This document shows, piece after piece, positions 1 through 64,000 of a stretch of DNA of 64,000 nucleotides. Source of the stretch: an uncultured virus (IMG/VR IMGVR_UViG_3300027833_000041) (taxonomy: Duplodnaviria; Heunggongvirae; Uroviricota; Caudoviricetes). The stretch is from IMG/VR virus record IMGVR_UViG_3300027833_000041; one strand, given 5' to 3'. Position numbers and translations under genes: made by a program. Position 1 is the first letter of the stretch. Each line of letters opens with the position of its first letter. The notes beneath the pieces were generated by a model that did no database searches, was not told the origin of the DNA, and worked only from the letters and a program-made list of their open reading frames with translations.

Positions 1-110
1 ACCCAAGTATCATTAAATTGATTCCACATTTTCACAATACACTCAAAAGTGTTAGTGGGTAATTCATTTTTTACATCCTTGTACATAGTTTTTACTTCAA
101 TTGTTTTCAT
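1..110 (-). CDS. Small early protein, truncated by window edge (MKTIEVKTMYKDVK...)
   Basis: Translated by hand; ATG lies within the 27-bp junction repeat; open to position 1. Confidence 0.6.
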   Translation of the reverse strand, partial: MKTIEVKTMYKDVKNELPTNTFECIVKMWNQFNDTW

Positions 111-112
111 TT

Positions 113-256
113 CTATTTTGTTTTAAAGGTTTCTTCATAAACTTTATTAAGCAACATCGTCCAAATAGGTAACTCCTCTTTAGTAGTTACTATTGGTGTG
201 TACTCACTTCTCTCAAGTTTCTCTGCTACTTGGTTTAATAATTCTAATCTTGTCAT
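113..256 (-). CDS. 47-aa early protein ending EETFKTK
   Basis: Translated by hand (MTRLELLNQVAEKL...); start and stop both lie in junction repeats. Confidence 0.65.
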   Translation of the reverse strand: MTRLELLNQVAEKLERSEYTPIVTTKEELPIWTMLLNKVYEETFKTK

Positions 257-460: not shown

Positions 461-681
461 TTCTCTTTTGTGTTAAAGGTTTCGTTGTAGTATTGTTCTG
501 CAGTCATCATTGATATGTGACTCACCTCATAAGCATTTATAATCACATCCTTATCTTTCTCAAGCATTGCCTTCTTGTTATTACGAATATGCTCAAGTAA
601 AGCCATTGCCACTCTTTCATCTGAGTCAAACATATGTGTTAGGTCTGACTCAAGTTTCAGTAGTTCTTGCATTGGTGTCAT
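457..681 (-). CDS. Hypothetical early protein ending ETFNTKEK
   Basis: ORF track; bounded by junction repeats. Confidence 0.75.
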   Translation of the reverse strand: MTPMQELLKLESDLTHMFDSDERVAMALLEHIRNNKKAMLEKDKDVIINAYEVSHISMMTAEQYYNETFNTKEK

Positions 682-700
682 TTCTCTTTGGTGTTAAAGG

Positions 701-931
701 TTAGTCGAGTAAAATCATATAAGCTTCAGCGTTCTCGCGGCGGAACCAACCTAAACCTTTTTGCATTACATCGTAGTGTTGGAGCAGTTGTGCACCCATA
801 ATTAGGTCGTACATGCTCAGTTCTTCTGCGGTAAGCTCTACACTTTCACCGGTGAATGGGTTTGAAACCGTGTCGCCGGTGGAGTATACCGTACCGTCAA
901 ACCATTTAGGCATTTCTTGTTTATTCTGCAT
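701..931 (-). CDS. Hypothetical early protein
   Basis: ORF in a tightly packed minus-strand run. Confidence 0.75.
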   Translation of the reverse strand: MQNKQEMPKWFDGTVYSTGDTVSNPFTGESVELTAEELSMYDLIMGAQLLQHYDVMQKGLGWFRRENAEAYMILLD

Positions 932-2156: not shown

Positions 2157-2175
2157 TTGTTATTCGTTTATTATA

Positions 2176-2460
2176 TTATCGTTCGCTGTTCGTATTAGTT
2201 TTGTAAAAGAGCCTAGACGCTAGAATAGCTATAACCTGGTTCATTGCCGTGGCATGTACTTCATTGTAATTGTCTATGTCTTCGGTTCTTTGGTAAATGT
2301 CTTCGTCTTCAATAGGCAACTGCCATAGTAAGGTGTCGTATAAATGTTCTTCTATATAGTCGGCTATTGTCTCACATTCGTCAATGAATGCGAAATCTGG
2401 GTCGATTACTTCATGGAACATACGGCCAATTCTGTTTTCAATTATTTCTTTCGGTGTCAT
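2176..2460 (-). CDS. Very acidic early protein
   Basis: ORF track; stop codon lies inside motif copy 1. Confidence 0.75.
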   Translation of the reverse strand: MTPKEIIENRIGRMFHEVIDPDFAFIDECETIADYIEEHLYDTLLWQLPIEDEDIYQRTEDIDNYNEVHATAMNQVIAILASRLFYKTNTNSER

Positions 2461-2464
2461 AGTA

Positions 2465-2677
2465 TTATCTTAAGCATGTACCGTAGCCTTTACGCCGCGA
2501 CGACTTTGCGATCGCTGCCGCTTGAGATTGGGACATAATTTGTATTTCGTTACCTGTCTTGTGGTTTGTAATTGGTGCACAACCGTACCGCTCGGTGTTA
2601 GAGCACGACACACAGTTGGTGTAGCCGTACTTAACGCGGATTGGGTGTACTTCTCGTGTACCGCATTTGCATATCAT
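2465..2677 (-). CDS. Small Cys-rich, putative Zn-finger protein
   Basis: CKC...CVSC; downstream of motif copy 2. Confidence 0.7.
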   Translation of the reverse strand: MICKCGTREVHPIRVKYGYTNCVSCSNTERYGCAPITNHKTGNEIQIMSQSQAAAIAKSSRRKGYGTCLR

Positions 2678-2733
2678 AGTAGTTTGTTTTTGTTACAAGT
2701 ATATTATCGACACTTGCTCGTGTTAGTCTTGTA

Positions 2734-2973
2734 TTAATAATAACTGCTCGACAGAGGTCTCTTAGCAAAGTCCGGAGCGTAAGTATTGTACACTTCGATC
2801 GCTTTACTACTATGACCTAGACGCTCAAGTAGTGTAAATATCTTCGCTCGACGGTCGTATTCATTACTCCAATGGGTTTCACGCCATGGGTTTTCCATGA
2901 ATTTAAAGTCGTGTGCTTGACACTCGTTTTCCAATGCCTCAATCGAGGCCTCTATCGCAGTTATATTTGTCAT
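2734..2973 (-). CDS. Hypothetical early protein
   Basis: ORF track; coupled to upstream gene. Confidence 0.7.
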   Translation of the reverse strand: MTNITAIEASIEALENECQAHDFKFMENPWRETHWSNEYDRRAKIFTLLERLGHSSKAIEVYNTYAPDFAKRPLSSSYY

Positions 2974-3215
2974 TATCTTATTTTTTTAATTTGGCTAGCG
3001 TATGCCCAGTGGTCGTTGTCTAAATCAACCGTTACATTACGGTCGTATACTTCACTCCATTCAACTTCTTCAACTAAGTCGCCATACTTGCCGCCTCGAG
3101 TAATTTCAATACTCTCCACGGTTGCTATTTTTACTGGATCGCCACCGAAGCCGCCTCTCCACCATACTTTGTCGCCTATTTTTAATACACTCATACTAGC
3201 AGTTTTTCGCTTCAA
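2973..3215 (-). CDS. Small SH3/KOW-like beta-barrel protein
   Basis: LKIGDKVWWRGG pattern. Confidence 0.6.
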   Translation of the reverse strand: MKRKTASMSVLKIGDKVWWRGGFGGDPVKIATVESIEITRGGKYGDLVEEVEWSEVYDRNVTVDLDNDHWAYASQIKKIR

Positions 3216-3600
3216 AAGCAGTTAGCATACCCATTAGCTTCATAATATCGTTAGGGTACTTTTCGCAATTAGTGGACTCCATTTCGTAGTACGCCTGGTT
3301 AGGGTACTTGTATACTTCGTCGCACCACCCAGCTTTGTAGTACAAATCCATATGTATTTTGTGCATTGTTTTCGTCTTAATGCGCTTGTTAATTGGCCAC
3401 ATAGTAATGTTGCCTGGGTTGCAGTCTTCAACCGCTTTATTGAAGCGATTAAGTAGACCGACTCTGAATCGGTTTTCAACGAAGCCGTCAAGTGAGTGTG
3501 CCACCCGTACATAGCCGGTTGATGGATACACCGCAGCAAGGCGGCCGTTTTTCAATTGGAAGTGTAGTGTTCCCTGTTTTGTAATGTGGTAAAGTTTCAT
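3196..3600 (-). CDS. Hypothetical early protein
   Basis: Downstream of motif copy 3. Confidence 0.75.
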   Translation of the reverse strand: MKLYHITKQGTLHFQLKNGRLAAVYPSTGYVRVAHSLDGFVENRFRVGLLNRFNKAVEDCNPGNITMWPINKRIKTKTMHKIHMDLYYKAGWCDEVYKYPNQAYYEMESTNCEKYPNDIMKLMGMLTAFEAKNC

Positions 3601-3644
3601 AGTAGTTATTTTATATTCGTTTATATTATCAACACGCTATCGTA

Positions 3645-3851
3645 TTACTTTTGTAATCCCATTTGCATTTCGTAGTCCGCTACCAAGTCGTCAATATCAG
3701 TAAGTGACAACTCAACTTCGTGTTCTTCACTAGAACAATCGTCCTCGCACTCCATCTCCGCCAAAGCAAAGTGGCGCATAACATCATCCCGCAGCGCTGG
3801 GTACTTCTCAATCACCTCTCGGCAATAAGTGTATAATTGGTACAATCTCAT
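3645..3851 (-). CDS. Hypothetical early protein
   Basis: ORF track. Confidence 0.7.
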   Translation of the reverse strand: MRLYQLYTYCREVIEKYPALRDDVMRHFALAEMECEDDCSSEEHEVELSLTDIDDLVADYEMQMGLQK

Positions 3852-4081
3852 AATTCGTTTTCGTTAGTTAATTGGTACGCTTGCTCTTTAGTGCAGTAGT
3901 ACACGTCTTTCGTCCATAGTGCTGGTTTGTATTGGTGCACCATATAGTTTACGTCATCTAAGTCGTGGCGTAATTCAACGAAATTCGCTGCATTCGGCAT
4001 TTTAGTTTCGTCGTAGTCGTATAGGTATACTTGCCCGTTTGAGTAATCAAGCACCGTAACATATTTGTAAGGTCGGTTCAT
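3848..4081 (-). CDS. Hypothetical early protein
   Basis: ORF track; 4-nt overlaps with neighbours. Confidence 0.7.
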   Translation of the reverse strand: MNRPYKYVTVLDYSNGQVYLYDYDETKMPNAANFVELRHDLDDVNYMVHQYKPALWTKDVYYCTKEQAYQLTNENEL

Positions 4082-4272
4082 AATCCTTCGTATTCGTTTT
4101 CATTTAATTCTCTAACAACTTTCGTGCCTAATCCATAAGCCTTTTGGTGTGCTTGCTCCAAACTCGAAGCGTAGACAACGAAAGACTCGTCACCATAGGC
4201 ACATAAATATAACTTATCCACGGTAGTCCCAAAGTTTAGTGTGAGAGAAAGTTTTGCCCTTACGGCTAACAC
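4078..4272 (-). CDS. Hypothetical early protein (true start probably near 4220)
   Basis: ORF track. Confidence 0.55.
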   Translation of the reverse strand: MLAVRAKLSLTLNFGTTVDKLYLCAYGDESFVVYASSLEQAHQKAYGLGTKVVRELNENEYEGL

Positions 4273-4417
4273 CCTTCATACCTGTTTTAGCACTCCACTC
4301 TTTGTAATTAGTGCCACTGCAAAAGCCGAACTCCTCAGTTGCCTCAGCGTGTCTCTCCGCCATCTCCTGCTTGCGCAATTCTTCACATCGTTGCATGTAT
4401 AGTTTCATTTCAGTCAT
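4214..4417 (-). CDS. Hypothetical early protein (MTEMKLYMQ...)
   Basis: Start moved to ATG at 4417, downstream of motif copy 4. Confidence 0.7.
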   Translation of the reverse strand: MTEMKLYMQRCEELRKQEMAERHAEATEEFGFCSGTNYKEWSAKTGMKGVSRKGKTFSHTKLWDYRG

Positions 4418-4571
4418 AGTAATTTGTTTTCTTGTTACACATATATTATCGATACCCAATCGTATTAGTTTTGTAAAACAAAAGTAACAACATCATTTAC
4501 TTAAAAAAAAAGAAGGGTAGGTGTAACACTAAGCCTCTATGTACCTAAAAAAAATGTTGTAAACGAAAAAG

Positions 4572-4616
4572 GTGACAATAGCTAATTAAGTAAATATAGT
4601 AGTAGGCTAACGTCGC
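4572..4616. promoter_or_regulatory. Palindromic site A: GTGACAATAGC-N23-GCTAACGTCGC
   Basis: Inverted arms; homologous to 6494-6537 and 63582-63626. Confidence 0.7.
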
Positions 4617-4721
4617 ACTTTTGGTGGAGGTGTATAGCACTTAAAAACCTTTGTGTAGGTTGGAGTATACTCTTCCGATGTTATCTCAGCATCAGGCCGG
4701 TGTATAGCAAAAAAGAGTTAC

Positions 4722-4907
4722 TTACTCTTCGTCGCTAGGTCTGTGTATGCGGTACACAAGATCACTTGGTTCACTTGCTTTAGCTATTTCTAAGAAGCGC
4801 TCTAACTTTGCAATTGTAGGTTTAAGGTCTTCAAAAGGCTGTTGTACTGGTATCGCAGCGTATAGCATACGTAGTTCGTCAGTTGTTAAATCTAAGTAGT
4901 GTTTCAT
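4722..4907 (-). CDS. Hypothetical early protein
   Basis: Downstream of motif copy 5. Confidence 0.7.
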   Translation of the reverse strand: MKHYLDLTTDELRMLYAAIPVQQPFEDLKPTIAKLERFLEIAKASEPSDLVYRIHRPSDEE

Positions 4908-5017
4908 AAGCTTTATTTCTTTATTGTATTATCGGTTAGAGTCCGTATTGTCTTTGTGAGTTGCAACAGCACCACAGATCGTGATGCTCGCTGCAGTGAT
5001 AACTAGTAGAGCAACCA

Positions 5018-5335
5018 TTACTTGGCTGGCTCTTGTAGTTCAACAATTGCCTCACTTGACAACACATTTTTAGGTGCGTTAGTACTTTGAGACCAGTAGC
5101 CTCTCTTAGCCCAACAAGGTAGGATGTTTAACTTTGGCAACATTACTTTCAACGCTTCATCGTGGTTGTAAGTTATAGTTTGGCCTTTGTTGTTAGTGAA
5201 GGTAATCACTTGGTTGCGACCTAGCCAAGACTTGCGGACGACAAAGTTCTTGCGTTCGATTGGTGGAAAGATTTCTGCCTTTTGTTCGTTTGACATGTTG
5301 GCAATCGCTTGAGTTAATAATTCTGATTTAGTCAT
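5018..5335 (-). CDS. Hypothetical early protein
   Basis: Downstream of motif copy 6. Confidence 0.8.
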   Translation of the reverse strand: MTKSELLTQAIANMSNEQKAEIFPPIERKNFVVRKSWLGRNQVITFTNNKGQTITYNHDEALKVMLPKLNILPCWAKRGYWSQSTNAPKNVLSSEAIVELQEPAK

Positions 5336-5383
5336 AGTATTTGTTTTTATTAGTTACATTTATATTATCGAATGAGTCTCGTA

Positions 5384-5572
5384 TTACTCTTGTATGTATA
5401 GTATAGTTCCTTCTTGATGGATATGCTCAGCTGTCCACACATCGACAGTTCCATTGGACTCTACGATCACATGTGTTGGTCCCTGTGGCTCATGCTCCAG
5501 TGTGTAGATGATAGTGGCAGTTGTTAGTAGTACTAGGGCTGTAGCAGCCGCTTTAATTAAGTTAATGTTCAT
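5384..5572 (-). CDS. Small membrane-anchored or exported early protein
   Basis: N-terminal hydrophobic segment; downstream of motif copy 7. Confidence 0.7.
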   Translation of the reverse strand: MNINLIKAAATALVLLTTATIIYTLEHEPQGPTHVIVESNGTVDVWTAEHIHQEGTILYIQE

Positions 5573-5692
5573 ATTGTATCTTTTTGTTACACTTATATTA
5601 TCGAATTCACTTCGTGTTGCTCTTGTATGTATAGCATCTTAGCTTTATGTTGTGGCGCGGCGTCCGCCTGATTACGAGCCCGATTGTTGTTG

Positions 5693-5824
5693 TTAGAACA
5701 TTACATCCTCTTCGATTGCGATCTGTACTTCTAAGAACTCAAGTAGTTCTGGTGTACGTTTGAAGTCTGTTGATGAGACGATCAGGTAAAGGTCATTCAG
5801 TAGTGAGAGATTGTCGTTGTTCAT
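5693..5824 (-). CDS. 43-aa early protein (MNNDNLSLLNDLYL...)
   Basis: Translated by hand; downstream of motif copy 8. Confidence 0.65.
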   Translation of the reverse strand: MNNDNLSLLNDLYLIVSSTDFKRTPELLEFLEVQIAIEEDVMF

Positions 5825-5881
5825 ATTGTTTCTTTTAGTTACATTTATATTATCGTGGTAGGGTCGTGGTAGTTCTGTAGG

Positions 5882-6061
5882 TTAGTCACGCTCAGAGCGG
5901 TAGTCGTCGTACCATTCTTGCAGTATCAAGCAGTACTCCATCTCAACGTCTGCATCACACAGGCCTGTGATGCCTGCTCTCTCACGTCTGCTTTGGCAGA
6001 TGTTCTTTGCAATTCTGTAAGCTTCAGCCGAGCGATCTGTGTAGTATTCTAGTTTAGTCAT
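5882..6061 (-). CDS. 59-aa first early protein (MTKLEYYTDRSAEA...)
   Basis: Translated by hand; downstream of motif copy 9. Confidence 0.65.
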   Translation of the reverse strand: MTKLEYYTDRSAEAYRIAKNICQSRRERAGITGLCDADVEMEYCLILQEWYDDYRSERD

Positions 6062-6133
6062 GTTATTATCTTTTGGTTACATATATATTATCGAACACCC
6101 ATCGTGTTAAGTCTGTAATGCTATACATGCGGG

Positions 6134-6302
6134 AACAGAACCAGGTACAGGTACAGTACCAGGTACAGGACCGGGTACAGACACAGGCACAGACCAGGGT
6201 AAAAGCCAGAACATTTACAGGGAACAGGACAGAGCACAGTTAGCAGACAGCCAGGACCAGAACAGAAACCTGGTAACCTGGAACGCAAAACAGAAACAGA
6301 CA
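6134..6302 (+). repeat. Strand-biased degenerate hexamer (NNNCAG) array
   Basis: About 22 CAG versus 2 CTG; 6-nt period from 6136 to 6190. Confidence 0.85.
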
Positions 6303-6493: not shown

Positions 6494-6537
6494 GTGACGA
6501 TAGGGTATTATAGTATATAGTAATAGGCTATTGTCGC
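6494..6537. promoter_or_regulatory. Palindromic site B: GTGACGATAGG-N22-GCTATTGTCGC
   Basis: Homologous to sites A and C. Confidence 0.7.
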
Positions 6538-6599
6538 TTATTAACTACCGTCTATACCGCGTGATCATACACGTATGACTTTAACTAACAATACATAAC

Positions 6600-21034: not shown

Positions 21035-22600
21035 ATGCAATACAACAACCCCAGCGAGATCGTCAAAGATCTTACGTTTGGCCATACAGCCAACGAAAAA
21101 ATTATGTCCGGCGTCGAAAAGTTAACAAGCGCAGTGAAGTCTACTTTAGGAGCTTCAGGTAAATGCGTTATATACGAAGACGCTATGGGCCGACCGGTCA
21201 TTACAAAAGACGGTGTAACCGTTGCGGAAAGCGTAGTCTTACGTGATCCGGTCGAAAATATAGGTGCAACCTTAATTAAGGAAGCGGCTGCAAACACTGT
21301 GCGTGAAGCGGGTGACGGTACTACAACAGCTACCGTCCTCGCTCATGCTATTTTGAAAGAAATTAATAAACACAAAAATGAAGGGCAAACTAGAAACGTT
21401 AAAACAGGCATTCAAGACTGTGCTGAAGAAGTTATGGTTTATCTTAACGACGCCAGTATTCCGGTTGCAGATCAAATGCTACAACAAGTTGCTTACATTA
21501 GCTGTAACAACGATAAAGCGCTTGGAGACAAAATTGGAGAAGCTTTCGGCAAAGTTGGAGCGGATGGCGTCGTTTTGATGGAAGAGTCCGATACAAATGA
21601 AACTTATGTTGATTTTGTTGAGGGCACACAATTTGATTCTGGTCTTAAGTCACCACACCTTGTTACGAATAAGGATAAAGGCATTGCTGAACTTGACAAC
21701 CCTTTGGTACTTATCGTAGCATCGGAAATACCAAACATTCGTCGCATTCAATCTATACTAGAGTTTGCGATTAAAAACAACCGAGCACTTTTAGTTATTG
21801 CAGGTATGGATCAACAACCGTACCAAACGCTACTAGCAAACAAAGTGAAAGGTAACATTAAGATTAACATCGTTGACGTGCCGGGCTTTGGCCCTACAAA
21901 GCAAGATACTATTGAAGACTTAGCTTTACTTACGGGCGCAACGATTATAAATGAGCAGCTTGGCGACGATTTAGATTTAATCGACCCATCAGTACTAGGC
22001 TCAGCAGTTAAGTCTGTAACAAACAATAAAAGCACAGTCCTGCAAGTTGATGTGGACAAAGAAGTACTAGAAGATCGCATTAAAGATGTACGTAAGAAGA
22101 TTAGTGAAGAAACTAACACTTTCTTTAAAGGTAAGCTCGAACAGCGGTTATCCATGCTATCCGGCAGTGTCGGGATCGTATATGTTGGGGCTGACTCGCA
22201 AGTCGAACTAAAAGAAAAGAAAGATAGAGTTGAAGATGCTATCTATGCTGTGCAAGCAGCTTTGAAAGAAGGTATTGTGCCCGGTGGCGGTACTGCGCTT
22301 CTACAGGCTTCTCAAGCTATCAAAAGCAAAGGCTTAGGCTACGACATTCTGTTAAGTGCTATACGCGCACCGTTTAATGTTATATTGGACAACGCTGGCA
22401 TTAAATTTTCTGGTAGCTTAACAACCAAGCACGACGGTATTGATGCTTCTACTGGTGAGCGCGTTAATATGATTAAGAAGGGTATTATTGACCCAGTGTT
22501 AGTTACTAAGACGGCTTTAAAGAATGCGGTAAGTGTTGCCACCACGATTACGTCTGCAGATTGTATAATCTCTAATATGCGTATCGATGCAAGCAATTAA
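21035..22600 (+). CDS. groL: Phage chaperonin GroEL (Cpn60)
   Basis: ITKDGVTVA, GDGTTTAT, GIVPGGG and GIIDP motifs. Confidence 0.97.
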   Translation: MQYNNPSEIVKDLTFGHTANEKIMSGVEKLTSAVKSTLGASGKCVIYEDAMGRPVITKDGVTVAESVVLRDPVENIGATLIKEAAANTVREAGDGTTTATVLAHAILKEINKHKNEGQTRNVKTGIQDCAEEVMVYLNDASIPVADQMLQQVAYISCNNDKALGDKIGEAFGKVGADGVVLMEESDTNETYVDFVEGTQFDSGLKSPHLVTNKDKGIAELDNPLVLIVASEIPNIRRIQSILEFAIKNNRALLVIAGMDQQPYQTLLANKVKGNIKINIVDVPGFGPTKQDTIEDLALLTGATIINEQLGDDLDLIDPSVLGSAVKSVTNNKSTVLQVDVDKEVLEDRIKDVRKKISEETNTFFKGKLEQRLSMLSGSVGIVYVGADSQVELKEKKDRVEDAIYAVQAALKEGIVPGGGTALLQASQAIKSKGLGYDILLSAIRAPFNVILDNAGIKFSGSLTTKHDGIDASTGERVNMIKKGIIDPVLVTKTALKNAVSVATTITSADCIISNMRIDASN

Positions 22601-22844
22601 CCACTATATAGTAATACGTAAGATTAAAGAGGCGCCGGTGAAAGTTGGTGGCCTCGAACTTACGGAAGACCAGAACAAAGACGTGCGCTATTTAAAAGCT
22701 GAAATCGTTAGCGTTGGTGACAAAGTTACGATGCTAGCACCTGGTAATATTATTAGGTACGATAAGCACGCTGGTCACGGTATCGAATGGAACGAAGATT
22801 TGTTCCACGTTATTAACCTCGGGGATGTTGTCATTGTAGAATGA
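22587..22844 (+). CDS. groS: Co-chaperonin GroES (Cpn10)
   Basis: GGL mobile loop, AEIVSVGD; adjacent to groL. Confidence 0.85.
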   Translation: MQAINHYIVIRKIKEAPVKVGGLELTEDQNKDVRYLKAEIVSVGDKVTMLAPGNIIRYDKHAGHGIEWNEDLFHVINLGDVVIVE

Positions 22845-41695: not shown

Positions 41696-44600
41696 ATGTA
41701 TAAAAACGGTGAAGACACAATTTCAATTGCAGAAGCTACTTCTTCTGCTGACCTATTAGGTTTATCTGTTGAAAATTGGGCTAACGAATACGGTTGGTCA
41801 TTAGAGGGAAAGACAACGGTTCCGGGGGAAACGACTCCACCGACGGAACCAGTAAAAGAAACGGCCGCTGGGGATTTCAGTTTGGCCGATACTTCATTGG
41901 AGTCACCCGAAGCTAACCCTTACTTACTTACTTTAGAAGACTTAGAGGGATCAGAAGAAGACGTATACGATCGCTTAAACAGCAAAATGAGAGCGATAGG
42001 TATTAAGCTAACAGAAGAAGGCTTAGGCACGAACAAAATACGCTTACAATCTATACAGGAATACGACCCAAAGACCAACCCTAGAGCCTATGTAAAAAGA
42101 AGCTTAAAAGACGATAACAGAGAGCAAGTGCTTGCTGATTTTAATTCTTTTATAGAGCAATATGCCGATGAGAATTATGCAGCGCAATTCGCTGAAGGAC
42201 GCGAAGACTTACTGAAAGAATACGAACAGGGTCTTAAAAATGTTAAAATAAGTGACGAGGAAGTTGAAGATAGCTTAATAGCGGAAAAAGCCGCTAAGTG
42301 GCGGAAAATGGATACACTCGATTTTGGCATGGGGCAGCGATCCGAGATAACCTTAAAAGAAAGCGACTTTGACAGTCCTGAGGAATTTAAAGCGTACCAA
42401 AACTGGAAAGAAACAGGGCTTATTGAGCCGTCCAGTACTGAAGTAGCTAATGCTAAAGTTGATATGCTCGAGGCTAAAAAGTCTAAAGTTAGCCAAGGTT
42501 ATATCAATGCCCTACCCAGTGAAGATAGAGAGGCCCTTGAAACAGTTACTGCTAAAAACAAATTGGACCTACAGATACGCATCGGCAACTTAGAAAGCGA
42601 AAAAAACAGCCTTGAGGCAAACAATTTTGCTTTAACTAACGATATTAAAGCGTACGAAGAAAACCCAACAGAAGAAGGCTATTTAGCTATTAAAAGAGAC
42701 GCAGCTGCTTTAATAGAGCAAGAAAGCGATTACAACTCTTTTTTAGATACACTGCAAAGCGAAGAAACGCAAATAGCCCTTCGCGCTACACAAGACTTTT
42801 CAAAAACTTACAACCTAGTAAGCAAGCTAGGTGTTAACTTTAAAGACCTTGCTATTAACATAGGTTACGGTGCTTATCAAATAACTAACGCACTTGGTGC
42901 CGCGAAACTTGCAGCGATTATCCCCGGGGTGGGTATAGGCGAAGCGTTCGAAGCAGGTATAAAAACAGCGGAGCAAAACGCTAAGGAAATACTGCAGGGT
43001 GCAGAAAAAGAAAAAGGCAGGCTATCACAAGGCGTAGCTTTTGAAGATATAGATTTATCTAAACCGAGCACACTAATCAATTGGGCGGGTAATACGGCGG
43101 TACAAGCTATACCTTCATTAACTATGGCTTTCACAGGGCCGGCTGCAATGCCTTTATTCTTCGCAAGTGGGTACGGTAGCAAAGCTGCTGAATTAGCTAC
43201 ACAAGAATACGCGGCTGCGGATAGAATGCTGGCCAATAAAAAGCTTTTAGTTTCAGGTACATTAACTGACGAAGAAAGACTTAGTATAGAAGCACAGATG
43301 GATGCTGACGCTGAAATTGTTAACATGCCTCTATGGAAGGAGATGTCTGTGTCCGCGATTTCCGGTGCTGCGGAAGTTGTATTTGAAAGGCTAGGTACTA
43401 TGGCTATTTTGAAAGGCGTTAACAAGGCTGTGAACCCATTACGCCCACAAATAGCTAAGGCTGTTGCTAAATCAGCTAACCAAGAAGGTTTGACTGAAGC
43501 AGCCACTGAGATAACTAACAATTTTGCCTCTATCTACATATTAGGTGAGGATAAAAATATAATGGACGGTGCTTTAGAATCCTACGCTGGCGGTGCATTA
43601 ATAGGTGCTCCGTTACAGTTAAAGCAATCTTTACCCGCGGTTTATAAGAATCTCGCGCATCAGTACATGACGAATGCTGAGATAGAGGCGTACCGGAGCA
43701 AAATAGAAAAAATTAAAGAGCTGTCAGGCTTGGAGAACATAGATTCTTTGCTAAACCCAGCGGCCCCTTTGCCTAAAAATATTAGTCCTGAGATTAAACA
43801 ACTAATTGAAGAGGTCCAAACCGAAGGCGAATTGCTGGAAGACAACGCAATATCAAGAATGAACTCTAGATTATCTGCTGAAGATTTAGCGGCAGTCGGT
43901 GAGGCAAACCTAAAAATGCGCCAAATTAACCAGAGGCTTATTAGCCTAGCGGAATCGGGTGCTAGCATTGCGGAAATTGATGCCGCTAAAAATACATTGC
44001 AAGAACAGTTTGATAATTTATCAAGCCAAAGAGAAGCAATTCTAACCGATAATTCAGGGCAAAGAAAGGCAGCAAGGCATAATGCATCGTTGAAAGTTAG
44101 TATAGACGCTAAAACAGCATTTGAAGTGGCGTTTAAGCAAGAGCTAGCCCAAAAGCAAGCTATGTCTGGTGCTAGATTTGATAAGTTAGATGATGTTTCT
44201 AAAAACAAATATTTAAAGAAAGCAAAAGAATCAGGTGCTGAAAATATAAATCAAGCTGCTAAACTTGAGTTTTTTATTGAAACAAATAAAAAACAACTAG
44301 CAGTAGATGAAGCCAATGCTAGGAATCTATTAGAGGAACTTGGCTTAACAAATCAAATTATTTCATTGTCAGACGCTGAATTTAGAAAGAAATTTCCCAA
44401 AAGCGACAAAAATACAGACGCATTTATAGATGATGCTACAGGCGATATATACATAAACGTAGACAAGTCCGCGGCAAGCGGTAAAGTAGCTGTTTATTCA
44501 CACGAATTACTACACGCAGTAGCTAAGCAATCTATAGGTAATGACGCGGCTAATAAAGCTGGTGAAAAGTTGCTTAACTGGCTAGAAAATAACACTACTG

Positions 44601-47600
44601 AAACTTCAGCTTATATTAAAAATAAGTTAGATTTCTTTTACAAAGAAGGCGATGTAAAAGATGCTGCGTATTATGAAGAGGCGATGAACGCCCTTTCAGA
44701 TTATATAGCAGAGGGTAATAAAGTAGATTTAGGCGCACTTACACAAATTAATTTGTTCCTTAACAAAGTATTTTCAAAGTCCTCACCACAATTAAGCATA
44801 GAAGACGGAGCTCAAACGTTCGCGTTTATAGCAGAGTACGCGAATAAAAATCGCAACGCTAAAACAAAAGCAATTATAAAAAACTTTGTTGACGAAGCTA
44901 AAGGTTTAGACGAAGAAGAAGCCCCGGTTAGTAACAAAAAATCTAAATCGCTACTTAGCGATATTAACGCTCTTGTACCAGAATCTGTGCAAACACAGGA
45001 GCAGTTCTTTGACCGTAAAGTATTCAACCCCATATACAACGACGGTAAGCTACATCCGGCTATAGCCAATTATATTCGCTCGCGCTCTGTAAGTAAAGAA
45101 GAAGCACAAAAAATTATAGAAAGTGTTGGTGATCGTTTAATTAACTTTAACCCGGAAGCTAAGCGTAAGTCAGGCGATGCTAGAATAACATTAGGCGAGT
45201 TTATATTCTCTAATGTTAACTTCGGAAAGTTGGATGCTCGTAAAGCATTATTTGAAGAAGGGCAGGAACGCGCTCAAACAGAAAGTACAGATAGCGAAAC
45301 AGCTAAACAAGTAGTAGCTAGGGAGGACGCATCCACCCCCGTGGCTGAAAAACCAGTATATAAAAGCTTAATACAAAGACGCATTGTTGATGCTGATGTA
45401 TTAAAATCTATAAAAGCTAAAGTTAAATCAACCGTGCGGGTTATGAAAACACGCATGGACGAGTCCGTTTCTAAGAACGTTACGGTAAAGCCTTATATTG
45501 CGGAGCTTCGCAAAGCTATGGGCAAGCAAGCTGACATCGACTTAAAGAAAGCTATGGGTGGCAAGAAAGACGGTCAGCTCCGTAAATTCTTATTACGCAA
45601 TAAAGCGGCTATACTGGAAAACATGACCACCACTTATCTTATGACAGCAATGCCAAATGCTATTCAAAAGAAAGTTGACGGTGTATGGACAAGTGACTGG
45701 AAAGGCAAAAAGATTGATAGAGAGTCTGTAGACACAGACAAAGCAGGGCGTACATCAGGCGCAGAGCTTGTTAGAAGACTGCCTAATGCGTCAACTAGAT
45801 TATCGGATGCTGATTACTTGTCTAATATTTTAGACGCCTCAGGGGCTCCTATACGCGGCCGTAAAGAATCTTTAGCAAAAGCTATATCGGAAGAACTTTC
45901 ATTTGATATTATCAATGATGCTTTGCAAGACCCCAACAGTAAGATTAGGAAAGCTTATGAGAGCAGACAAGAGCTTTTAGGTGCTGAGTTAAGTGACGCT
46001 TTTGTGCAAGAGGTAGCGAGGGATGTTGAAAGAGGCAGTGTAAAAAGATCTGCATCTATAAGAGCCATGTCTCCTGAGCAAAGAATGGCATGGGAAAGCA
46101 AGCGAGATGAATTTTCTAAACGAATGGTCGGCGTAGATGAAGACTATTCTGTGCGTTCAATTAGAAATGATTTAAAAGCAGTATACGGCGACACGTTTAC
46201 CGCTAAACAATATTCTGATTTAGCCAAAGACTTACTTAAAATATTTAAATCTATAAAAAGAATAGATATAAAAGAGTTAGGTATTGCTAAAGAAGACATT
46301 TCTGATATACTTAAAGAGATTGACAATGACATCGACTTTGTAGAAAACGTTCATAAAATGACTGGCGCTTCTGCTACTGTTGCCGATTTATTTAGAAGTA
46401 GAGCTAAAATAGCGGAATCTAAAGAAGCGATTGTTGACATACTAAAATTAAACAATGTACCCGCTGCGGTGGCTAAATCTTTTATGGCCCGCACATTTGC
46501 TAACTCCGGCAGAATCGGCGTGTTTAAAAAAGACGGTACCGTTAAGAAAGACTCTAGGCAAGATTTCTTTTATAATGTAGCGGACGTACAGAGCGCTCTT
46601 GTAGGCGAAGGCAAGCTTTACACACAAGAGGAATGGGATAACGCTGAAACAATGGCAGCAAGCGCTGACGTTAAAGCAAGCTACTTGAATGGTAAGTTTG
46701 AAAATTCCGCTGAATTGCAGGCGCAAGACGCAGCTACAGCAAATGCAGCATGGGAGCTAACCAGCACTATAGTTAAAGGGCTTAAAAACTACAGTCCAGA
46801 TGTCCAGGCAATGGTTATTGCAGCGATGAATTCCGGTACAAATACAGTAGCTAGGGTAGCTGCTCCGGTTACGCATATAGCTGAAGGTGCAACTTCTAAA
46901 AACACTAAAAGTTACAGATACGAGCATGCCACACCAGCAAGAGCTATTCTAGCATTAATGTTTAAAAGCTACGTACAAGGTGGCAAATCTATAGACATGG
47001 ACGCTCTTAAGGCTGATTATAAGGTAGCTATTATACCGTTAGCTATGGACAAAGTTGTTACTGCCGCCGGCTTTGCTGCTCGTCAGGCTATTGGCTATGT
47101 TCCCGGACAAACACCTTGGTATAAAAGATATTACAACATATTTACTTTAGGTAAAATCCAATACGCTTTAAAGCCTTTTGCAGGCGGTGAATTAATAGGT
47201 GAAAAATACGCTAAAGCTTACAATACTAAACAATCTTTTGACGTTAACTCTAAACAGTATTTAAAAGCTGTTAAAGACGTTAAGGCTGTAGAAACTACCA
47301 AAGCGTCTAAATCTATAGATACTTCGCTGAGCAAAGAGTTTAATAACATACTAGAGCGCAAAACAGGTGTTGAAGCATTCAAAACATTCTCAGCCGTTCA
47401 AGCGCAGAAGCGTGGGGAAAAGAAAGGTAGATTTAAATTCTTTATTGCGCCGAGCGTTGATGATTTTAGAGGCTTAGTTAACTATGCGTTTGCTGGTAAA
47501 GGTAAACAGGGTGAAGCTGATATGAAATGGCTCGAAGATAACCTAATGACGCCTTACGCTAAAGGTATTGCCGCTATTAATGGTATACGCCAGCAAATAA

Positions 47601-49507
47601 AACGCGACTTTAAAACCGCAGTTAAAGCATTTCCTAAGCAGTACCAGTTGCTAAATAAGGAGATCGGAAAGACAGGTTTTACTTATGATCAAGCTGTTAG
47701 AGTGTACCTGTGGGGTAAAGCAGGTATTAAAGTACCAGGCTTGTCACAGAAGGATACGAAAATACTGCAAGACGCTATTCGTGAAAATCCGGAGTTAATG
47801 GACTTTGCAGATGCAATGCTTGTTGTTGCCCGACGAGATACGTGGATGGAGCCGAGCGAACATTGGTCGGCAAGTACATTGCTGTCAGATCTTAACAGTA
47901 TGACCGAGAAGATTGGCCGTAAAAAATACTTAGAAGAGTTTATAGCGAACGCTGATGCAATATTTACCGAGGAAAACCTAAACAAGATTGAGGCATTGTA
48001 CGGTAGAGCACATCGTGACGCTATTGTGGACGCTTTGTATTCAATGACTAACGGTACAAACCGTGAGAAAAACACTAACAAGCAAATTAATGCTTGGTTG
48101 AATTGGATTAATGGTTCTACAGGTGCGATTATGTTCTTTAACAGACGCTCTGCATTATTGCAGATGCTTTCTACTGTTAACTTTATAAACTACTCTGATA
48201 ACAACCCTCTTAAGGCAGCCGCAGCGTTTGCTAATCAAAAGCAATACTGGACTGACTGGGCTATGATATTTAACTCAGACAAACTTAAGGAGCGCCGGGG
48301 CGGATTAAAGCAGGACGTAAGTTCTAACGAAATAGCTAGTATAGCTAACGCAAACAAGAACAGCCCTCAAGCTATTTTAGCTAGGTTATTGCAATTAGGT
48401 TTTACACCTACTCAAATTGCAGATAGTATGGCTATTGCATCTGGGGGTGCTACATTCTATCGTAATCGCGTTAACACGTATCTTAAAAAAGGCATGACCC
48501 AAAAAGAAGCTGAGCAGCAAGCTTTCTTGGATTTCTCTAAGATATCAGATGAAACACAGCAGTCTTCAGATCCAGCGCTAGTTTCTCAGGTGCAAAGAAG
48601 CAACCTAGGTCGTCTTGTATTTGCTTTCCAAAATACGCCTATGCAAATGACGCGTTTAATGAAGAAAGACGCGTTGGATATTATTAATGGCCGCGGTGAC
48701 TGGAGAGCTAAAGTAGCAAGAATTACTTATTACGGAGCGATCCAAAACTTTATATTCTCATCCTTGCAAAGCGCATTATTCGCTATGCTACCAGGTTTTG
48801 ATGACGACGACGAAGATCTTACTGCCGCTGAATTAGATAAGAAAAACGCAAAAGAAGAAGCTAAGATAGCTAGAGTGTTAAACAGTATGCTCGATACTCT
48901 GCTTAGAGGCTCAGGCGTATACGGAGCGGTTTTCTCTACTGTTAAAAACGTTATTAGAGAATACAACAAGCAAGAGGAAAAAGGATTTATGTCTGAACAT
49001 GCTTACACTGTGCTGTCTTTATTTAATATATCACCGCCTATTGGCTCTAAGGCTCGTAAAATACATAGTGCTATTCAAACAAGAAAGTTTGAGAAAGACG
49101 AGATTGCAGCACGTGGCTGGGGCGTAGTAGCAGACGGTAGATTAGATTTAGGCCCAAATTGGAGTATATTAGGTAAAGTTTTATCTGCCGCGGTTAGTGT
49201 ACCGCTTGATCGTGTGGTAGATGAGCTTACTTCTATTAGCGAAGCATTCGATGCGCGTAACAAAGCGTGGCAGCGTATAGCATTAGCCTTAGGCTGGAAA
49301 ACGTGGGACGTGGGTGCTATAGAGGAAAACGCTGAAGCTATTAAAGCAGCCGCTAAGAAAAAACGCAAGGAAGCGGGAACTAAGAAGGCAAAAGAAACCC
49401 GCAGAAAAAACAAGCCGAAAAAAATAGAAGCTAGAAAAAAGAAAGAGCAAGAATTAGAATTAATGACCCCCGCTGAAATGACTGAGTATTTAAATAAAAA
49501 CAAATAA
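41696..49507 (+). CDS. Giant internal virion / ejection protein with a zincin-like HELLH motif
   Basis: 2603 aa; IYIN...SHELLHAV...EEAMN; hydrophobic A/G-rich segments. Confidence 0.7.
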   Translation: MYKNGEDTISIAEATSSADLLGLSVENWANEYGWSLEGKTTVPGETTPPTEPVKETAAGDFSLADTSLESPEANPYLLTLEDLEGSEEDVYDRLNSKMRAIGIKLTEEGLGTNKIRLQSIQEYDPKTNPRAYVKRSLKDDNREQVLADFNSFIEQYADENYAAQFAEGREDLLKEYEQGLKNVKISDEEVEDSLIAEKAAKWRKMDTLDFGMGQRSEITLKESDFDSPEEFKAYQNWKETGLIEPSSTEVANAKVDMLEAKKSKVSQGYINALPSEDREALETVTAKNKLDLQIRIGNLESEKNSLEANNFALTNDIKAYEENPTEEGYLAIKRDAAALIEQESDYNSFLDTLQSEETQIALRATQDFSKTYNLVSKLGVNFKDLAINIGYGAYQITNALGAAKLAAIIPGVGIGEAFEAGIKTAEQNAKEILQGAEKEKGRLSQGVAFEDIDLSKPSTLINWAGNTAVQAIPSLTMAFTGPAAMPLFFASGYGSKAAELATQEYAAADRMLANKKLLVSGTLTDEERLSIEAQMDADAEIVNMPLWKEMSVSAISGAAEVVFERLGTMAILKGVNKAVNPLRPQIAKAVAKSANQEGLTEAATEITNNFASIYILGEDKNIMDGALESYAGGALIGAPLQLKQSLPAVYKNLAHQYMTNAEIEAYRSKIEKIKELSGLENIDSLLNPAAPLPKNISPEIKQLIEEVQTEGELLEDNAISRMNSRLSAEDLAAVGEANLKMRQINQRLISLAESGASIAEIDAAKNTLQEQFDNLSSQREAILTDNSGQRKAARHNASLKVSIDAKTAFEVAFKQELAQKQAMSGARFDKLDDVSKNKYLKKAKESGAENINQAAKLEFFIETNKKQLAVDEANARNLLEELGLTNQIISLSDAEFRKKFPKSDKNTDAFIDDATGDIYINVDKSAASGKVAVYSHELLHAVAKQSIGNDAANKAGEKLLNWLENNTTETSAYIKNKLDFFYKEGDVKDAAYYEEAMNALSDYIAEGNKVDLGALTQINLFLNKVFSKSSPQLSIEDGAQTFAFIAEYANKNRNAKTKAIIKNFVDEAKGLDEEEAPVSNKKSKSLLSDINALVPESVQTQEQFFDRKVFNPIYNDGKLHPAIANYIRSRSVSKEEAQKIIESVGDRLINFNPEAKRKSGDARITLGEFIFSNVNFGKLDARKALFEEGQERAQTESTDSETAKQVVAREDASTPVAEKPVYKSLIQRRIVDADVLKSIKAKVKSTVRVMKTRMDESVSKNVTVKPYIAELRKAMGKQADIDLKKAMGGKKDGQLRKFLLRNKAAILENMTTTYLMTAMPNAIQKKVDGVWTSDWKGKKIDRESVDTDKAGRTSGAELVRRLPNASTRLSDADYLSNILDASGAPIRGRKESLAKAISEELSFDIINDALQDPNSKIRKAYESRQELLGAELSDAFVQEVARDVERGSVKRSASIRAMSPEQRMAWESKRDEFSKRMVGVDEDYSVRSIRNDLKAVYGDTFTAKQYSDLAKDLLKIFKSIKRIDIKELGIAKEDISDILKEIDNDIDFVENVHKMTGASATVADLFRSRAKIAESKEAIVDILKLNNVPAAVAKSFMARTFANSGRIGVFKKDGTVKKDSRQDFFYNVADVQSALVGEGKLYTQEEWDNAETMAASADVKASYLNGKFENSAELQAQDAATANAAWELTSTIVKGLKNYSPDVQAMVIAAMNSGTNTVARVAAPVTHIAEGATSKNTKSYRYEHATPARAILALMFKSYVQGGKSIDMDALKADYKVAIIPLAMDKVVTAAGFAARQAIGYVPGQTPWYKRYYNIFTLGKIQYALKPFAGGELIGEKYAKAYNTKQSFDVNSKQYLKAVKDVKAVETTKASKSIDTSLSKEFNNILERKTGVEAFKTFSAVQAQKRGEKKGRFKFFIAPSVDDFRGLVNYAFAGKGKQGEADMKWLEDNLMTPYAKGIAAINGIRQQIKRDFKTAVKAFPKQYQLLNKEIGKTGFTYDQAVRVYLWGKAGIKVPGLSQKDTKILQDAIRENPELMDFADAMLVVARRDTWMEPSEHWSASTLLSDLNSMTEKIGRKKYLEEFIANADAIFTEENLNKIEALYGRAHRDAIVDALYSMTNGTNREKNTNKQINAWLNWINGSTGAIMFFNRRSALLQMLSTVNFINYSDNNPLKAAAAFANQKQYWTDWAMIFNSDKLKERRGGLKQDVSSNEIASIANANKNSPQAILARLLQLGFTPTQIADSMAIASGGATFYRNRVNTYLKKGMTQKEAEQQAFLDFSKISDETQQSSDPALVSQVQRSNLGRLVFAFQNTPMQMTRLMKKDALDIINGRGDWRAKVARITYYGAIQNFIFSSLQSALFAMLPGFDDDDEDLTAAELDKKNAKEEAKIARVLNSMLDTLLRGSGVYGAVFSTVKNVIREYNKQEEKGFMSEHAYTVLSLFNISPPIGSKARKIHSAIQTRKFEKDEIAARGWGVVADGRLDLGPNWSILGKVLSAAVSVPLDRVVDELTSISEAFDARNKAWQRIALALGWKTWDVGAIEENAEAIKAAAKKKRKEAGTKKAKETRRKNKPKKIEARKKKEQELELMTPAEMTEYLNKNK

Positions 49508-62212: not shown

Positions 62213-62968
62213 TTACAGAAAATCAAGCACTTGAGAAGAATCGGTGGATGCTATCAACTTGTCAATAGCGTCCTTCTTTATTTGCGAAATACGCACATTA
62301 GCGGTAGCAACACTGATACCTACTTGACTAGCGATCTGCGACGCAGGTAATTTTTGGCTGTCCAATCCGTAAGATAAGCGTAATACATCATATTGTACCG
62401 GTGTTAAATGCTCGCGCATTAAACCTAGCAAGTATGAATTCATTATTGTAATATTGTACGCTTCGTTTGTATCTGCAACCTGCATAAATGGATTATCCTC
62501 GTTGCTGAAGTGTGCATCGATGCTGGAGAACACGCTGTTAAAGAACAATGCAACCATAGCGTCATCATCCGGGTTCTTGCGTATCTCATTTAGTTTATGC
62601 TCGGGGATGCGTACGTCGCCCCTATTAATATCAATAGCGCGGCGTATCGCTCCCTTTATTCTTTTAGATAGGAATGACTTAATTGTTTTTTCAGGGTCTT
62701 CAGAATCGAGTATCTTGTCCCAGCTAATTTTGTCGACAGCGGCAACTAAGCCGTAATTACCCTCCTGTATTAAATCATTTATGCTCATAACGCCGGACGC
62801 TTGGTCTGATGTAGAAAACTTTCTCGCTAAGTTCTCAACCAATGGCATAAACTGCGCTACAAGTTGATCGCGTGACATATCGCCCCACTCTAAATTTTCA
62901 TTACGCAAGAGCACTGTTTCTAAATCAGTCTTGTATCTGACGTAATTTTGTATGTTGTATTTTTTCAT
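62213..62968 (-). CDS. Phage-encoded sigma-70-family factor
   Basis: Region 2 DLIQEGNYGL...VRIP; region 4 HTH VLRLSYGL...RISQIKKDAIDKL. Confidence 0.9.
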   Translation of the reverse strand: MKKYNIQNYVRYKTDLETVLLRNENLEWGDMSRDQLVAQFMPLVENLARKFSTSDQASGVMSINDLIQEGNYGLVAAVDKISWDKILDSEDPEKTIKSFLSKRIKGAIRRAIDINRGDVRIPEHKLNEIRKNPDDDAMVALFFNSVFSSIDAHFSNEDNPFMQVADTNEAYNITIMNSYLLGLMREHLTPVQYDVLRLSYGLDSQKLPASQIASQVGISVATANVRISQIKKDAIDKLIASTDSSQVLDFL

Positions 62969-63588
62969 TATAGTTCTTGGTTAAGCAGTTGCTTTTCTTT
63001 TTTAAGTTCTGTACTCATGTTGCGGTGGATAGTTCTAGTAGAACAACCCAATCGCCCTGCAATTGATTTTATGGTGAGCTTTTCACCAGCGTCGTGCATA
63101 AATAACATAGCGTCGTATATTTCCGCCTCGGATAGCTTTTGCTTTCCTACCATGCTGCCTACAATACTTAACTTCTCGTTAAGTGACAACCCACAATTGT
63201 CTTTAAATATAATTTTTCTAACTTTGTTAGCGGGTGGTCGTTCGAGGTCTTGCATAGATACATCGTATACCATGCTTTCAATAAGTGCATCAGAGACGTT
63301 AAAGGTAACAAAACCGTTTTCTTTAGAGCAAAGATATTGAGTTAATGTTATAAATTCGTCCTGATCCAATGCGTCGTTGAGGTACCACAATACATACAAG
63401 TGCCACTTCAGCGATTTGTATGTGTTGATTTTAGCTTTCGTTTGAAACAAAGCGTAGCACTCGTGCGTACCTGTTTCGTAAAAGTTACCCCATTCAAATT
63501 TAGCTGAAGGCTTGTCGGTAATTGGATTGCGGCGGTATATTATGCGCTTATCATTTAAGTACTTCATATTCCGTTCATACTGTGACAT
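62968..63588 (-). CDS. DNA-binding protein with C-terminal HTH (regulator or replication initiator)
   Basis: LTIKSIAGRLGCSTRTIHRNM. Confidence 0.7.
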   Translation of the reverse strand: MSQYERNMKYLNDKRIIYRRNPITDKPSAKFEWGNFYETGTHECYALFQTKAKINTYKSLKWHLYVLWYLNDALDQDEFITLTQYLCSKENGFVTFNVSDALIESMVYDVSMQDLERPPANKVRKIIFKDNCGLSLNEKLSIVGSMVGKQKLSEAEIYDAMLFMHDAGEKLTIKSIAGRLGCSTRTIHRNMSTELKKEKQLLNQEL

Positions 63589-63626
63589 TAGCCTGTTACT
63601 ATTATATCATTATAAGCTACCGTCGC
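63582..63626. promoter_or_regulatory. Palindromic site C, overlapping the HTH gene start codon
   Basis: GTGACATTAGC-N23-GCTACCGTCGC; CAT at 63586-63588. Confidence 0.7.
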
Positions 63627-63709: not shown

Positions 63710-64000
63710 TTACATACAGCTGTTGGCATATCTAGTTATTTTAGTTTCGTTAGCATTAGCTACGGTATGCTTTTCAGCTTCGTAGTAGTTCCAGTAAGCG
63801 TCAACCGAGCATTCTGATTTGTATTCATCAGGCATGCATTGTGGCGGCTGTTGCCATTCTTGAGATGGAATGCCAGGCGGCAAATCCATTAGCGTGTTGT
63901 AGCACTTTTCAATTGTCAAGTGCTTCTTACCATAGCGCCGCGTGTACTCGTTTCCGAGTGCAATCATATGTTCATATAACCAAAGGTAAGCGAGGTCGTT
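63710..64000 (-). CDS. Pyrimidine-dimer DNA glycosylase (DenV/endonuclease V)-like protein, 5-prime truncated
   Basis: LGNEYTRRYGKKH...PPQCMPDEYK...AYWNYY; frame is open to the window end. Confidence 0.65.
   Translation of the reverse strand, partial: NDLAYLWLYEHMIALGNEYTRRYGKKHLTIEKCYNTLMDLPPGIPSQEWQQPPQCMPDEYKSECSVDAYWNYYEAEKHTVANANETKITRYANSCM

Follow-up and report, generated by a model that had tools for sequence, protein, structure and literature searches.

This report concerns a repeated 34-bp site in the leftward early arm of an uncultured marine phage (IMG/VR record IMGVR_UViG_3300027833_000041), from whose contig of 66,454 bases a stretch of 64,000 nucleotides was analysed (the window). 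Nine copies lie in the window and a tenth lies beyond it, and their anatomy indicates that these ten sites are almost certainly promoters, termed class I here. Their reader is probably a sigma-70-family factor that the phage itself encodes, acting together with the host core RNA polymerase. New here are the start-site register of these promoters, a priming paradox, and the presence of copies in rare Flavobacterium accessory islands of sigma-less genomes.

The original prediction described nine copies that all point left, each followed closely by an ATG, with TGTAAC after six of them and with three overlapping stop codons, and each of these statements was borne out. The pattern matches nine times in the window, always on the minus strand (six exact matches, two with one mismatch and one with three), against 0.01 matches expected in shuffled sequence. 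The ATG is 16–26 nt away in all nine, TGTAAC follows 6/9, and the stops of open reading frames (ORFs) 2176–2460, 3645–3851 and 5384–5572 lie inside the motif; at 2172..2205 the TAA of the −10 box is itself the stop codon of ORF 2176–2460. In a matrix scan the nine sites score 29.5–44.2 and the next best 5.8. The tenth copy, an exact one at genome positions 66121–66154 with a predicted +1 at 66117, heads the run from the ligase gene to the helix-turn-helix (HTH) and sigma genes. All ten copies are leftward, each before a small ORF (Table 1).

The start-site register was derived from 519 unique viral sites; the scoring matrix has 34 columns, so positions 37 and 38 lie outside it. The sites share descent, and site counts are not independent. 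Position 38 is A or G in 99% of the 519 sites and position 37 is a pyrimidine in 78%. Of the 49 sites with an ATG at position 38, 48 open an ORF of 45 codons or more with it, compared with 10 of 194 for an ATG at position 36, which arises from the TG. The 49 position-38 ORFs represent 18 protein families, including the sigma factor, a ligase and a thymidylate-synthase-like protein. Since leaderless genes begin at position 38, this position is likely the transcription start (+1). The purine at position 38 is present in 254 of 257 GATAATA elements with the upstream boxes, versus 43 of 61 without them. In the resulting register TACAAA would occupy −37 to −32, AAYACGA −28 to −22 and CGATAATA −13 to −6, and TGTAAC would supply T−1 and G+1 followed by the beginning of the leader. 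The −10 box has A−11 in 100% and T−7 in 98% of sites at a fixed distance from the pyrimidine-purine (YR) start, and the upstream box stands at fixed spacing, in one orientation and upstream of genes, as in sigma-70-type promoters. The spacing between ACG and GATAATA is 10 nt in 400 of 402 matches, part of which come from loci fetched with the pattern itself.

A second sample of 80 loci was fetched by the sigma protein, with no use of the motif in selection. The sites in these loci are co-oriented with the sigma gene in 416 cases and opposite in 2, and sites occur in 50 of the 51 loci that have 5 kb or more of upstream sequence; the exception, L290, has a degenerate CACR..ACG..GATAATA form (read by eye). 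Together, the start-site signature, the leaderless ORFs, the fixed spacing and the difference from the host TAnnTTTG give good support to the proposal of the original prediction that the sites form a phage-specific promoter class. The sites do not follow the host pattern of TAnnTTTG at −12 to −5 with an upstream TTG; they have G−12 and no TTTG, and a full sigma-A box is found in only 5/519, in agreement with the earlier statement that the motif differs from the Bacteroidota housekeeping promoter. An overlapping or antisense host sigma-A box was considered and rejected, as such boxes (5/519 sense, 123/519 antisense) are not conserved. A site of the dif, loxP or attC kind was also rejected on comparison with the organisation of such sites, given the variable spacer and the lack of a conserved inversion. 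A scan with E. coli-type promoter and terminator models gave chance-level results. No description of the motif was found in the literature, as covered by open papers.

The phage terminase is 46% identical to that of Flavobacterium phage elemoA and 66% identical to that of MW202828, and the 87 records matched are phages of Flavobacterium, Cellulophaga, Tenacibaculum and Maribacter together with the uncultured MW202828; the host is inferred to be flavobacterial because the matched records are phages of flavobacterial genera. The DNA of the early region has no match among annotated phage records, and a family scan of 23 small leftward ORFs (18 upstream of 6100) yielded no useful family apart from one weak PHROG of unknown function and the ORF at 63710, which matched a DNA-binding PHROG. 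The exact motif pattern matched 119 stretches of viral contigs and occurs in approximately 15,000 stored metagenome stretches (extrapolated from 1/64 of the collection), and the sigma protein search returned at least 8,000 candidates. Ten near-complete relatives (terminase identity 74–86%) each carry 5–13 early-strand sites, with one site in total on the late strand, and the sigma gene and the adjoining HTH gene are present in 10/10. The motif is thus a clade-wide feature of a very common uncultured phage clade. Sigma was found in 28 of 41 motif-bearing contigs searched; that the motif may occur without sigma was rejected for the 5 of 13 sigma-negative contigs checked (G015, G016, G024, G027 and G037), which are fragments that stop before the ERF-sigma module. 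The motif was not found in MW202828 or in the 34 kb of elemoA scanned, and both phages are sigma-less; elemoA has a full host promoter (TTG/TAnnTTTG) at the head of its small-ORF arm.

The original prediction offered three readers for the sites: the encoded sigma factor, a host alternative sigma factor or an injected factor. Of these, the encoded sigma is the best fit by its residues and its co-occurrence with the motif, although covariation with the motif is absent. The factor is RpoD-like overall and has FliA-type residues in regions 2.3/2.4 (F99, R103, G106) and 4.2 (RISQ). R103 aligns to the position of sigma-70 W434, where the Flavobacterium host sigma-A has tryptophan (WW), and F99 aligns to the Y76 position of Pseudomonas FliA; the R103, F99 and RISQ pattern is like that of the FliA taken from G057. 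According to PMC12784957, R80 of Pseudomonas FliA, at the W434 place, contacts −12G and Y76 stacks on −11A, and the P. aeruginosa fliC promoter is given as (−15)GCCGATAA(−8) and (−36)TCTAAAG(−30). The F/K/R/G residues of the phage sigma are invariant in 78 of 80 sigma loci (the other 2 were not parsed), and G−12 of the motif is likewise invariant, suggesting that R103 contacts G−12. The phage sigma scores 31.5 bits against TIGR02479 (FliA/WhiG family), far from the cut-off of 189.6, and would therefore appear to work like a group 3 sigma without being FliA. It has no match among 50,697 annotated phage records, including all cultured relatives. In one relative (G004:C1:55767-56517) the sigma gene is split over two frames, either by a frameshift or by an assembly error.

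These features suggest a mechanism in which host core RNA polymerase carrying the phage sigma would read the ten sites before the small early-arm genes. Region 2 of the sigma would melt GATAAT, with F99 stacking on A−11 and R103 holding G−12, and region 4 would read C−35, A−33 and A−32. Candidate readers of the middle box are an N-terminal helix or HTH insert of the sigma, the zinc domain of beta-prime and a phage co-activator. The 206-residue HTH protein encoded beside the sigma gene is a candidate for this last role, although it may instead be an origin-binding protein. The sigma gene lies downstream of class I promoters, and its product would boost its own synthesis, the first molecules coming from the virion or from weak host read-in. 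The same sigma may later serve weaker sites of a second type, GT-RATNATA (class II), before the late genes. Class II shares the −10 core of class I and has TTR at about −34; it lies in front of ERF and of orthologous late genes, with leaderless starts in some relatives. Its total count in this genome is not above chance (8 versus 7.5), and the case for it rests on position before orthologous genes only; it could be the second target of the phage sigma or its only one.

Several observations weigh against the phage sigma as reader. Its whole sequence and fold are closer to SigA than to FliA, and its best PDB matches are SigA. Among 34 phages, motif distance does not covary with sigma distance after correction for replication genes (partial r 0.03, p 0.4); a weak relation to sigma (0.21) is confined to the motif part from −14 to −3, which the HTH gene follows better (0.33). 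One locus, L255, alters the upstream boxes and keeps near-identical regions 2.4 and 4.2, and region 4.2 varies widely across the loci against a constant −35 box. Given the absent covariation, the variable region 4.2 and L255, the upstream boxes are perhaps read by the HTH protein or by a host part. The co-occurrence of motif and sigma also rests on a single clade with no independent gains, and copies of the site are present in 15 bacterial genomes with no detected phage-type sigma. Finally, there is a problem of timing. Across 41 early arms, TAnnTTTG on the sense strand occurs at the chance level (119 versus 123 expected), as do full promoters (7 versus 5.9), and the nearest site lies 40–43 bp before the sigma start in 13 of the 69 loci with an upstream site. 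With no host-type promoter above chance upstream of the sigma gene, and that gene behind class I sites, nothing visible primes the loop, and the injected factor offered in the original prediction is for that reason still plausible. This paradox leads to three possible solutions: a virion-borne sigma, weak host initiation that primes the feedback, or a host factor that reads the sites.

The last of these is developed in the most serious rival, an unlikely but credible reading in which a host factor uses the sites as immediate-early promoters, either an ECF sigma or sigma-A with an activator bound to the −28 to −22 box as in sigma adaptation, and the phage sigma serves only the class II middle and late sites. 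A host reader would solve the timing problem, would account for copies upstream of island genes in genomes without the phage sigma and for the absence of motif-sigma covariation, and would leave the sigma a class of its own; however, class II has the same −10 core, such that one sigma can explain both. The promoter classes of F. psychrophilum given in PMC9723704 are sigma-A, sigma-54, TAnnTTGY and an ECF class with a CGT box. G−12 conflicts with the WW of host sigma-A and with its TAnnTTTG consensus, and the rarity of full sigma-A boxes among the sites also speaks against this reading. Across 401 genomes of the host family, a motif regulon was sought and 9 genomes were found (one being the chosen centre) versus 8 for a reversed control, and no cognate sigma was found, the one weak match being an RpoD paralogue; the host alternative sigma of the original prediction thus has no chromosomal regulon in these genomes. 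Island genomes, likewise, carry only 1–4 sites each. WYL regulators share a contig with island sites in G054 (two contigs), G050 and G042, but a WYL activator as reader was rejected because the family occurs in only 4/15 island genomes, and these regulators have an upstream palindrome of their own. In two islands (L383:7740-7765 and L384:5185-5210) the WYL-domain regulator is transcribed away from the island with the palindrome upstream of its own start, and a stop interrupts the L384 copy.

The chromosomal copies themselves came from a scan of bacterial genomes that returned 82 stretches, mostly phage fragments in bins. Fifteen Flavobacteriales or Bacteroidetes genomes carry sites in a chromosomal context, one of which (G052) looks like chance, and in the four genomes whose surroundings were fetched the sites stand at the head of series of accessory genes that share one direction. 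Relaxed matching added six sites, none of them farther than 19 kb from an exact match, compared with none in the reversed control; two of these six represent a single island shared by sister genomes. The +1 purine is present in 16 of 19 listed island sites, a weak signal as duplicates and two doubtful sites are included. The islands encode SRA, trypsin, caspase, AAA and VWA-like, and DUF285 proteins and are described as conflict-type, with SRA, caspase, trypsin, MoxR-VWA, BspA-type and TerB-like genes; comparison of their proteins with PADLOC gave generic protease, caspase and WYL domains only and no complete system. The islands listed in Table 1 share gene families of an unnamed kind (an exported protein of approximately 450 residues and exported proteins of 120–140 residues), and one encodes an SRA domain. 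Window ORF 5018–5335 has one island homolog in Flavobacterium (30% over 54 residues). The phage sigma has no match in the 15 island genomes, most of which are incomplete bins, and five of these checked further encode sigma-A and ECF-sized factors only. The island sites are either switched by the phage, read by a host factor or relics. It is conceivable, if rather improbable, that the clade runs its first-wave genes on virion-delivered sigma and that the islands of a few Flavobacterium species switch on by the same promoter solely in the presence of the phage sigma, which would make them a transcription-level phage sensor.

In another rival reading, the sites are recognised without sigma by a polymerase that the virion delivers or by some other ejected protein, such as the 2603-residue protein at 41696–49507. 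The phage has large ejection-type proteins and a weak crAss capsid match, crAss-like phages inject an RNA polymerase, and the early arm has no detected host-type promoter. However, the 2603-residue protein matches no family in Pfam, PHROG or NCBIfam and lacks a DxDGD/DFDID-type motif, the Atlas neighbours of its residues 1–2035 are unnamed or LPD-type and not polymerases, and the A−11/T−7 box with a 5-nt gap to the YR start is sigma-70-type anatomy. A virion RNA polymerase in this protein was consequently rejected on family, motif and Atlas (residues 1–2035) comparisons, and an ejected reader that acts without the sigma is very unlikely.

Even less probable is that the sites serve chiefly for recombination or cassette exchange (PeSL- or attC-like), with promoter activity secondary. 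The early arm is mosaic at gene junctions, at approximately four times the within-gene rate, and at the motif the beginnings of shared blocks outnumber their ends (56 versus 20, compared with 70 versus 68 at plain junctions). Four of six blocks shared with the closest relative, G007, begin within 30 nt of a site's first base. Promoter-led genes keep their upstream neighbour in 19% of pairings, compared with 33% for plain ones, the pairs being non-independent. The start bias of the blocks fits a promoter and gene moving together, but it also follows from motif conservation. Block ends per kb are 4.43 at promoters versus 4.01 at plain junctions (0.32 per feature at each), and per-family neighbour diversity is 0.36 versus 0.36 (p 0.77; 5 promoter-led versus 26 families), with a weak rank trend (p 0.046; 33 families). 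The breakpoint comparison thus shows no excess over ordinary gene junctions, contrary to the suggestion of the original prediction that the sites are a shuffling hotspot like the early-promoter cassettes of T4-type phages. No terminator-like hairpin was found at any of the nine sites, where the upstream folds are unremarkable save one, and the sites are therefore not PeSLs. The 8-nt spacer is variable, and among the scanned proteins there is no recombinase besides ERF and a RecE-like exonuclease. Recombination as the main role is already largely refuted. The least credible rival, that the sites are operators of a phage or host repressor, draws on a weak CGA-N7-TCG inversion in some window copies and on the HTH protein encoded beside sigma, but the consensus is directional and not palindromic, the strand bias is strict, start-site purines and leaderless ATGs are present, and the element upstream of the HTH gene is another one, which is palindromic.

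Table 1. Predicted promoters, regulator genes and promoter-bearing islands. Positions are those of the window unless a locus is named.
Feature	Position	Strand	Remarks
Class I promoter (predicted)	6084..6117	−	+1 at 6080; heads ORF 5882-6061 (59 aa); first site of early arm
Class I promoter (predicted)	5846..5879	−	+1 at 5842; heads ORF 5693-5824 (43 aa)
Class I promoter (predicted)	5594..5627	−	+1 at 5590; heads ORF 5384-5572 (62 aa)
Class I promoter (predicted)	5361..5394	−	+1 at 5357; contains stop of upstream ORF; heads ORF 5018-5335 (105 aa)
Class I promoter (predicted), weakest, 3 mismatches	4925..4958	−	+1 at 4921; heads ORF 4722-4907
Class I promoter (predicted)	4442..4475	−	+1 at 4438; heads ORFs 4214-4417, 3848-4081, 3645-3851
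Class I promoter (predicted)	3622..3655	−	+1 at 3618; contains stop of ORF 3645-3851; heads ORFs 3196-3600, 2973-3194, 2734-2973
Class I promoter (predicted)	2700..2733	−	+1 at 2696; heads ORFs 2465-2677, 2176-2460
Class I promoter (predicted)	2172..2205	−	+1 at 2168; heads ORF 1572-2156 and run down to 113
Class II motif GT-RATNATA	6561..6569	+	before first late gene; shares −10 core with class I
Class II motif, further copies	~20676, 24202, 30152, 39879; 62173	+ (first four); − (62173)	before late genes and ERF
Sigma-70-family factor, 251 aa	62213..62968	−	RpoD-like overall; FliA-type residues in regions 2.3/2.4 and 4.2
206-aa protein, C-terminal HTH	62968..63588	−	alongside sigma in 10/10 near-complete relatives
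Flavobacterium accessory islands with phage promoter	L376:11282-17811, L378:3776-15117, L379:6356-16652, L381, L382, L383, L384		

Other repeats accompany the sites. A 24-mer ending AGAAATG is present in five copies (window 108–131, 254–277, 458–481 and 679–702, minus strand; genome 66316–66339, minus strand) and forms the stop-start junction of tiny ORFs. Of the 10 near-complete relatives, G007 alone has it, in two copies, and it recurs at a few other loci; it probably serves a subclade as a joint for translation coupling or exchange. An imperfect palindrome (GYGAC..TAG, an A/T-rich core, TAGTA..AGGC..GTCRC) has three copies, at approximately 4572–4616 (plus), 6494–6538 (plus) and 63585–63626 (minus), one of them directly on the start of the 206-residue HTH gene. 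It is found in 7/10 relatives at matching places and is a candidate operator, origin or packaging site bound by the HTH protein. Low-complexity repeats (CAGGTA/CAGAAC-type units) at 6125–6300, where the early and late arms diverge, are variable in population contigs and possibly lie near a genome end or origin. The phage also encodes a GroEL/GroES-like pair (21035–22844). Metatranscriptome contigs from four runs of one study cover intergenic DNA too, with records of up to 71 kb that resemble carried-over DNA, and starts are not visible in these contigs. They contain joints between motif copies with short sides (22–43 nt), which were not counted, and one clean deletion (3847–4078) that removes a gene without a promoter of its own.

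In this uncultured and very common clade, the motif is a marker of the early programme, and the sigma and its promoter would be an orthogonal pair with potential for driving expression in Bacteroidota, a group in which standard promoters perform poorly. Should the first transcripts require the sigma, the phage would have to inject it or to prime the feedback loop, neither of which, to our knowledge, is known from other phages. The chromosomal copies would define phage-triggered host islands if they respond to the phage sigma.

Comparison with known systems places the sites closest in register to the sigma-28 promoters of group 3 factors (FliA, SigD, WhiG), as represented by P. aeruginosa fliC. 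Both have C−13, G−12, A−11, T−10, A−9 and A−8 in the same register, as well as C−35, A−33 and A−32, and the phage sigma likewise has Arg for W434 and RxSQ in region 4.2. The CGATAA core at −13 to −8 is present, with C−13 in 56% of sites clade-wide and in 8/9 in the window. In contrast to sigma-28 promoters, the phage sites have A/T at −15/−14 in place of the GC extended −10, an invariant T−7 and A−6, and an extra conserved box at −28 to −22, and the phage sigma differs from FliA in its RpoD-like character overall, its score far below the family cut-off and the lack of a flagellar context.

SPO1 gp28 and T4 gp55 are phage sigmas that send host core polymerase to private promoters, where they serve middle or late genes and are made from host-read early promoters. 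Here, in contrast, both the early arm and the gene for the sigma have private promoters at their head, and a host-type promoter was not found. The T4 MotA box and the mycobacterial PafBC sigma adaptation are activator-dependent promoters with a spacer box; the phage sites similarly have a conserved box near −28 to −23 at a fixed distance from the −10 element, but its sequence is different, the −35-type box is kept and no activator has been identified. Similar to the PeSL cassettes of T4-type phages, as described in PMC4122927, the sites are numerous co-oriented early promoters amid small variable genes, and promoter and downstream gene tend to travel together; unlike PeSLs, they have no stem-loop terminator, do not match the host consensus and show no breakpoint excess over other junctions. 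Finally, A−11, T−7 and A-rich leaders without a Shine-Dalgarno sequence are shared with the Bacteroidota sigma-A promoter (TAnnTTTG; PMC9723704), from which the phage sites differ by G−12 and the lack of TTTG, and it is this sigma-A class that the sigma-less elemoA uses.

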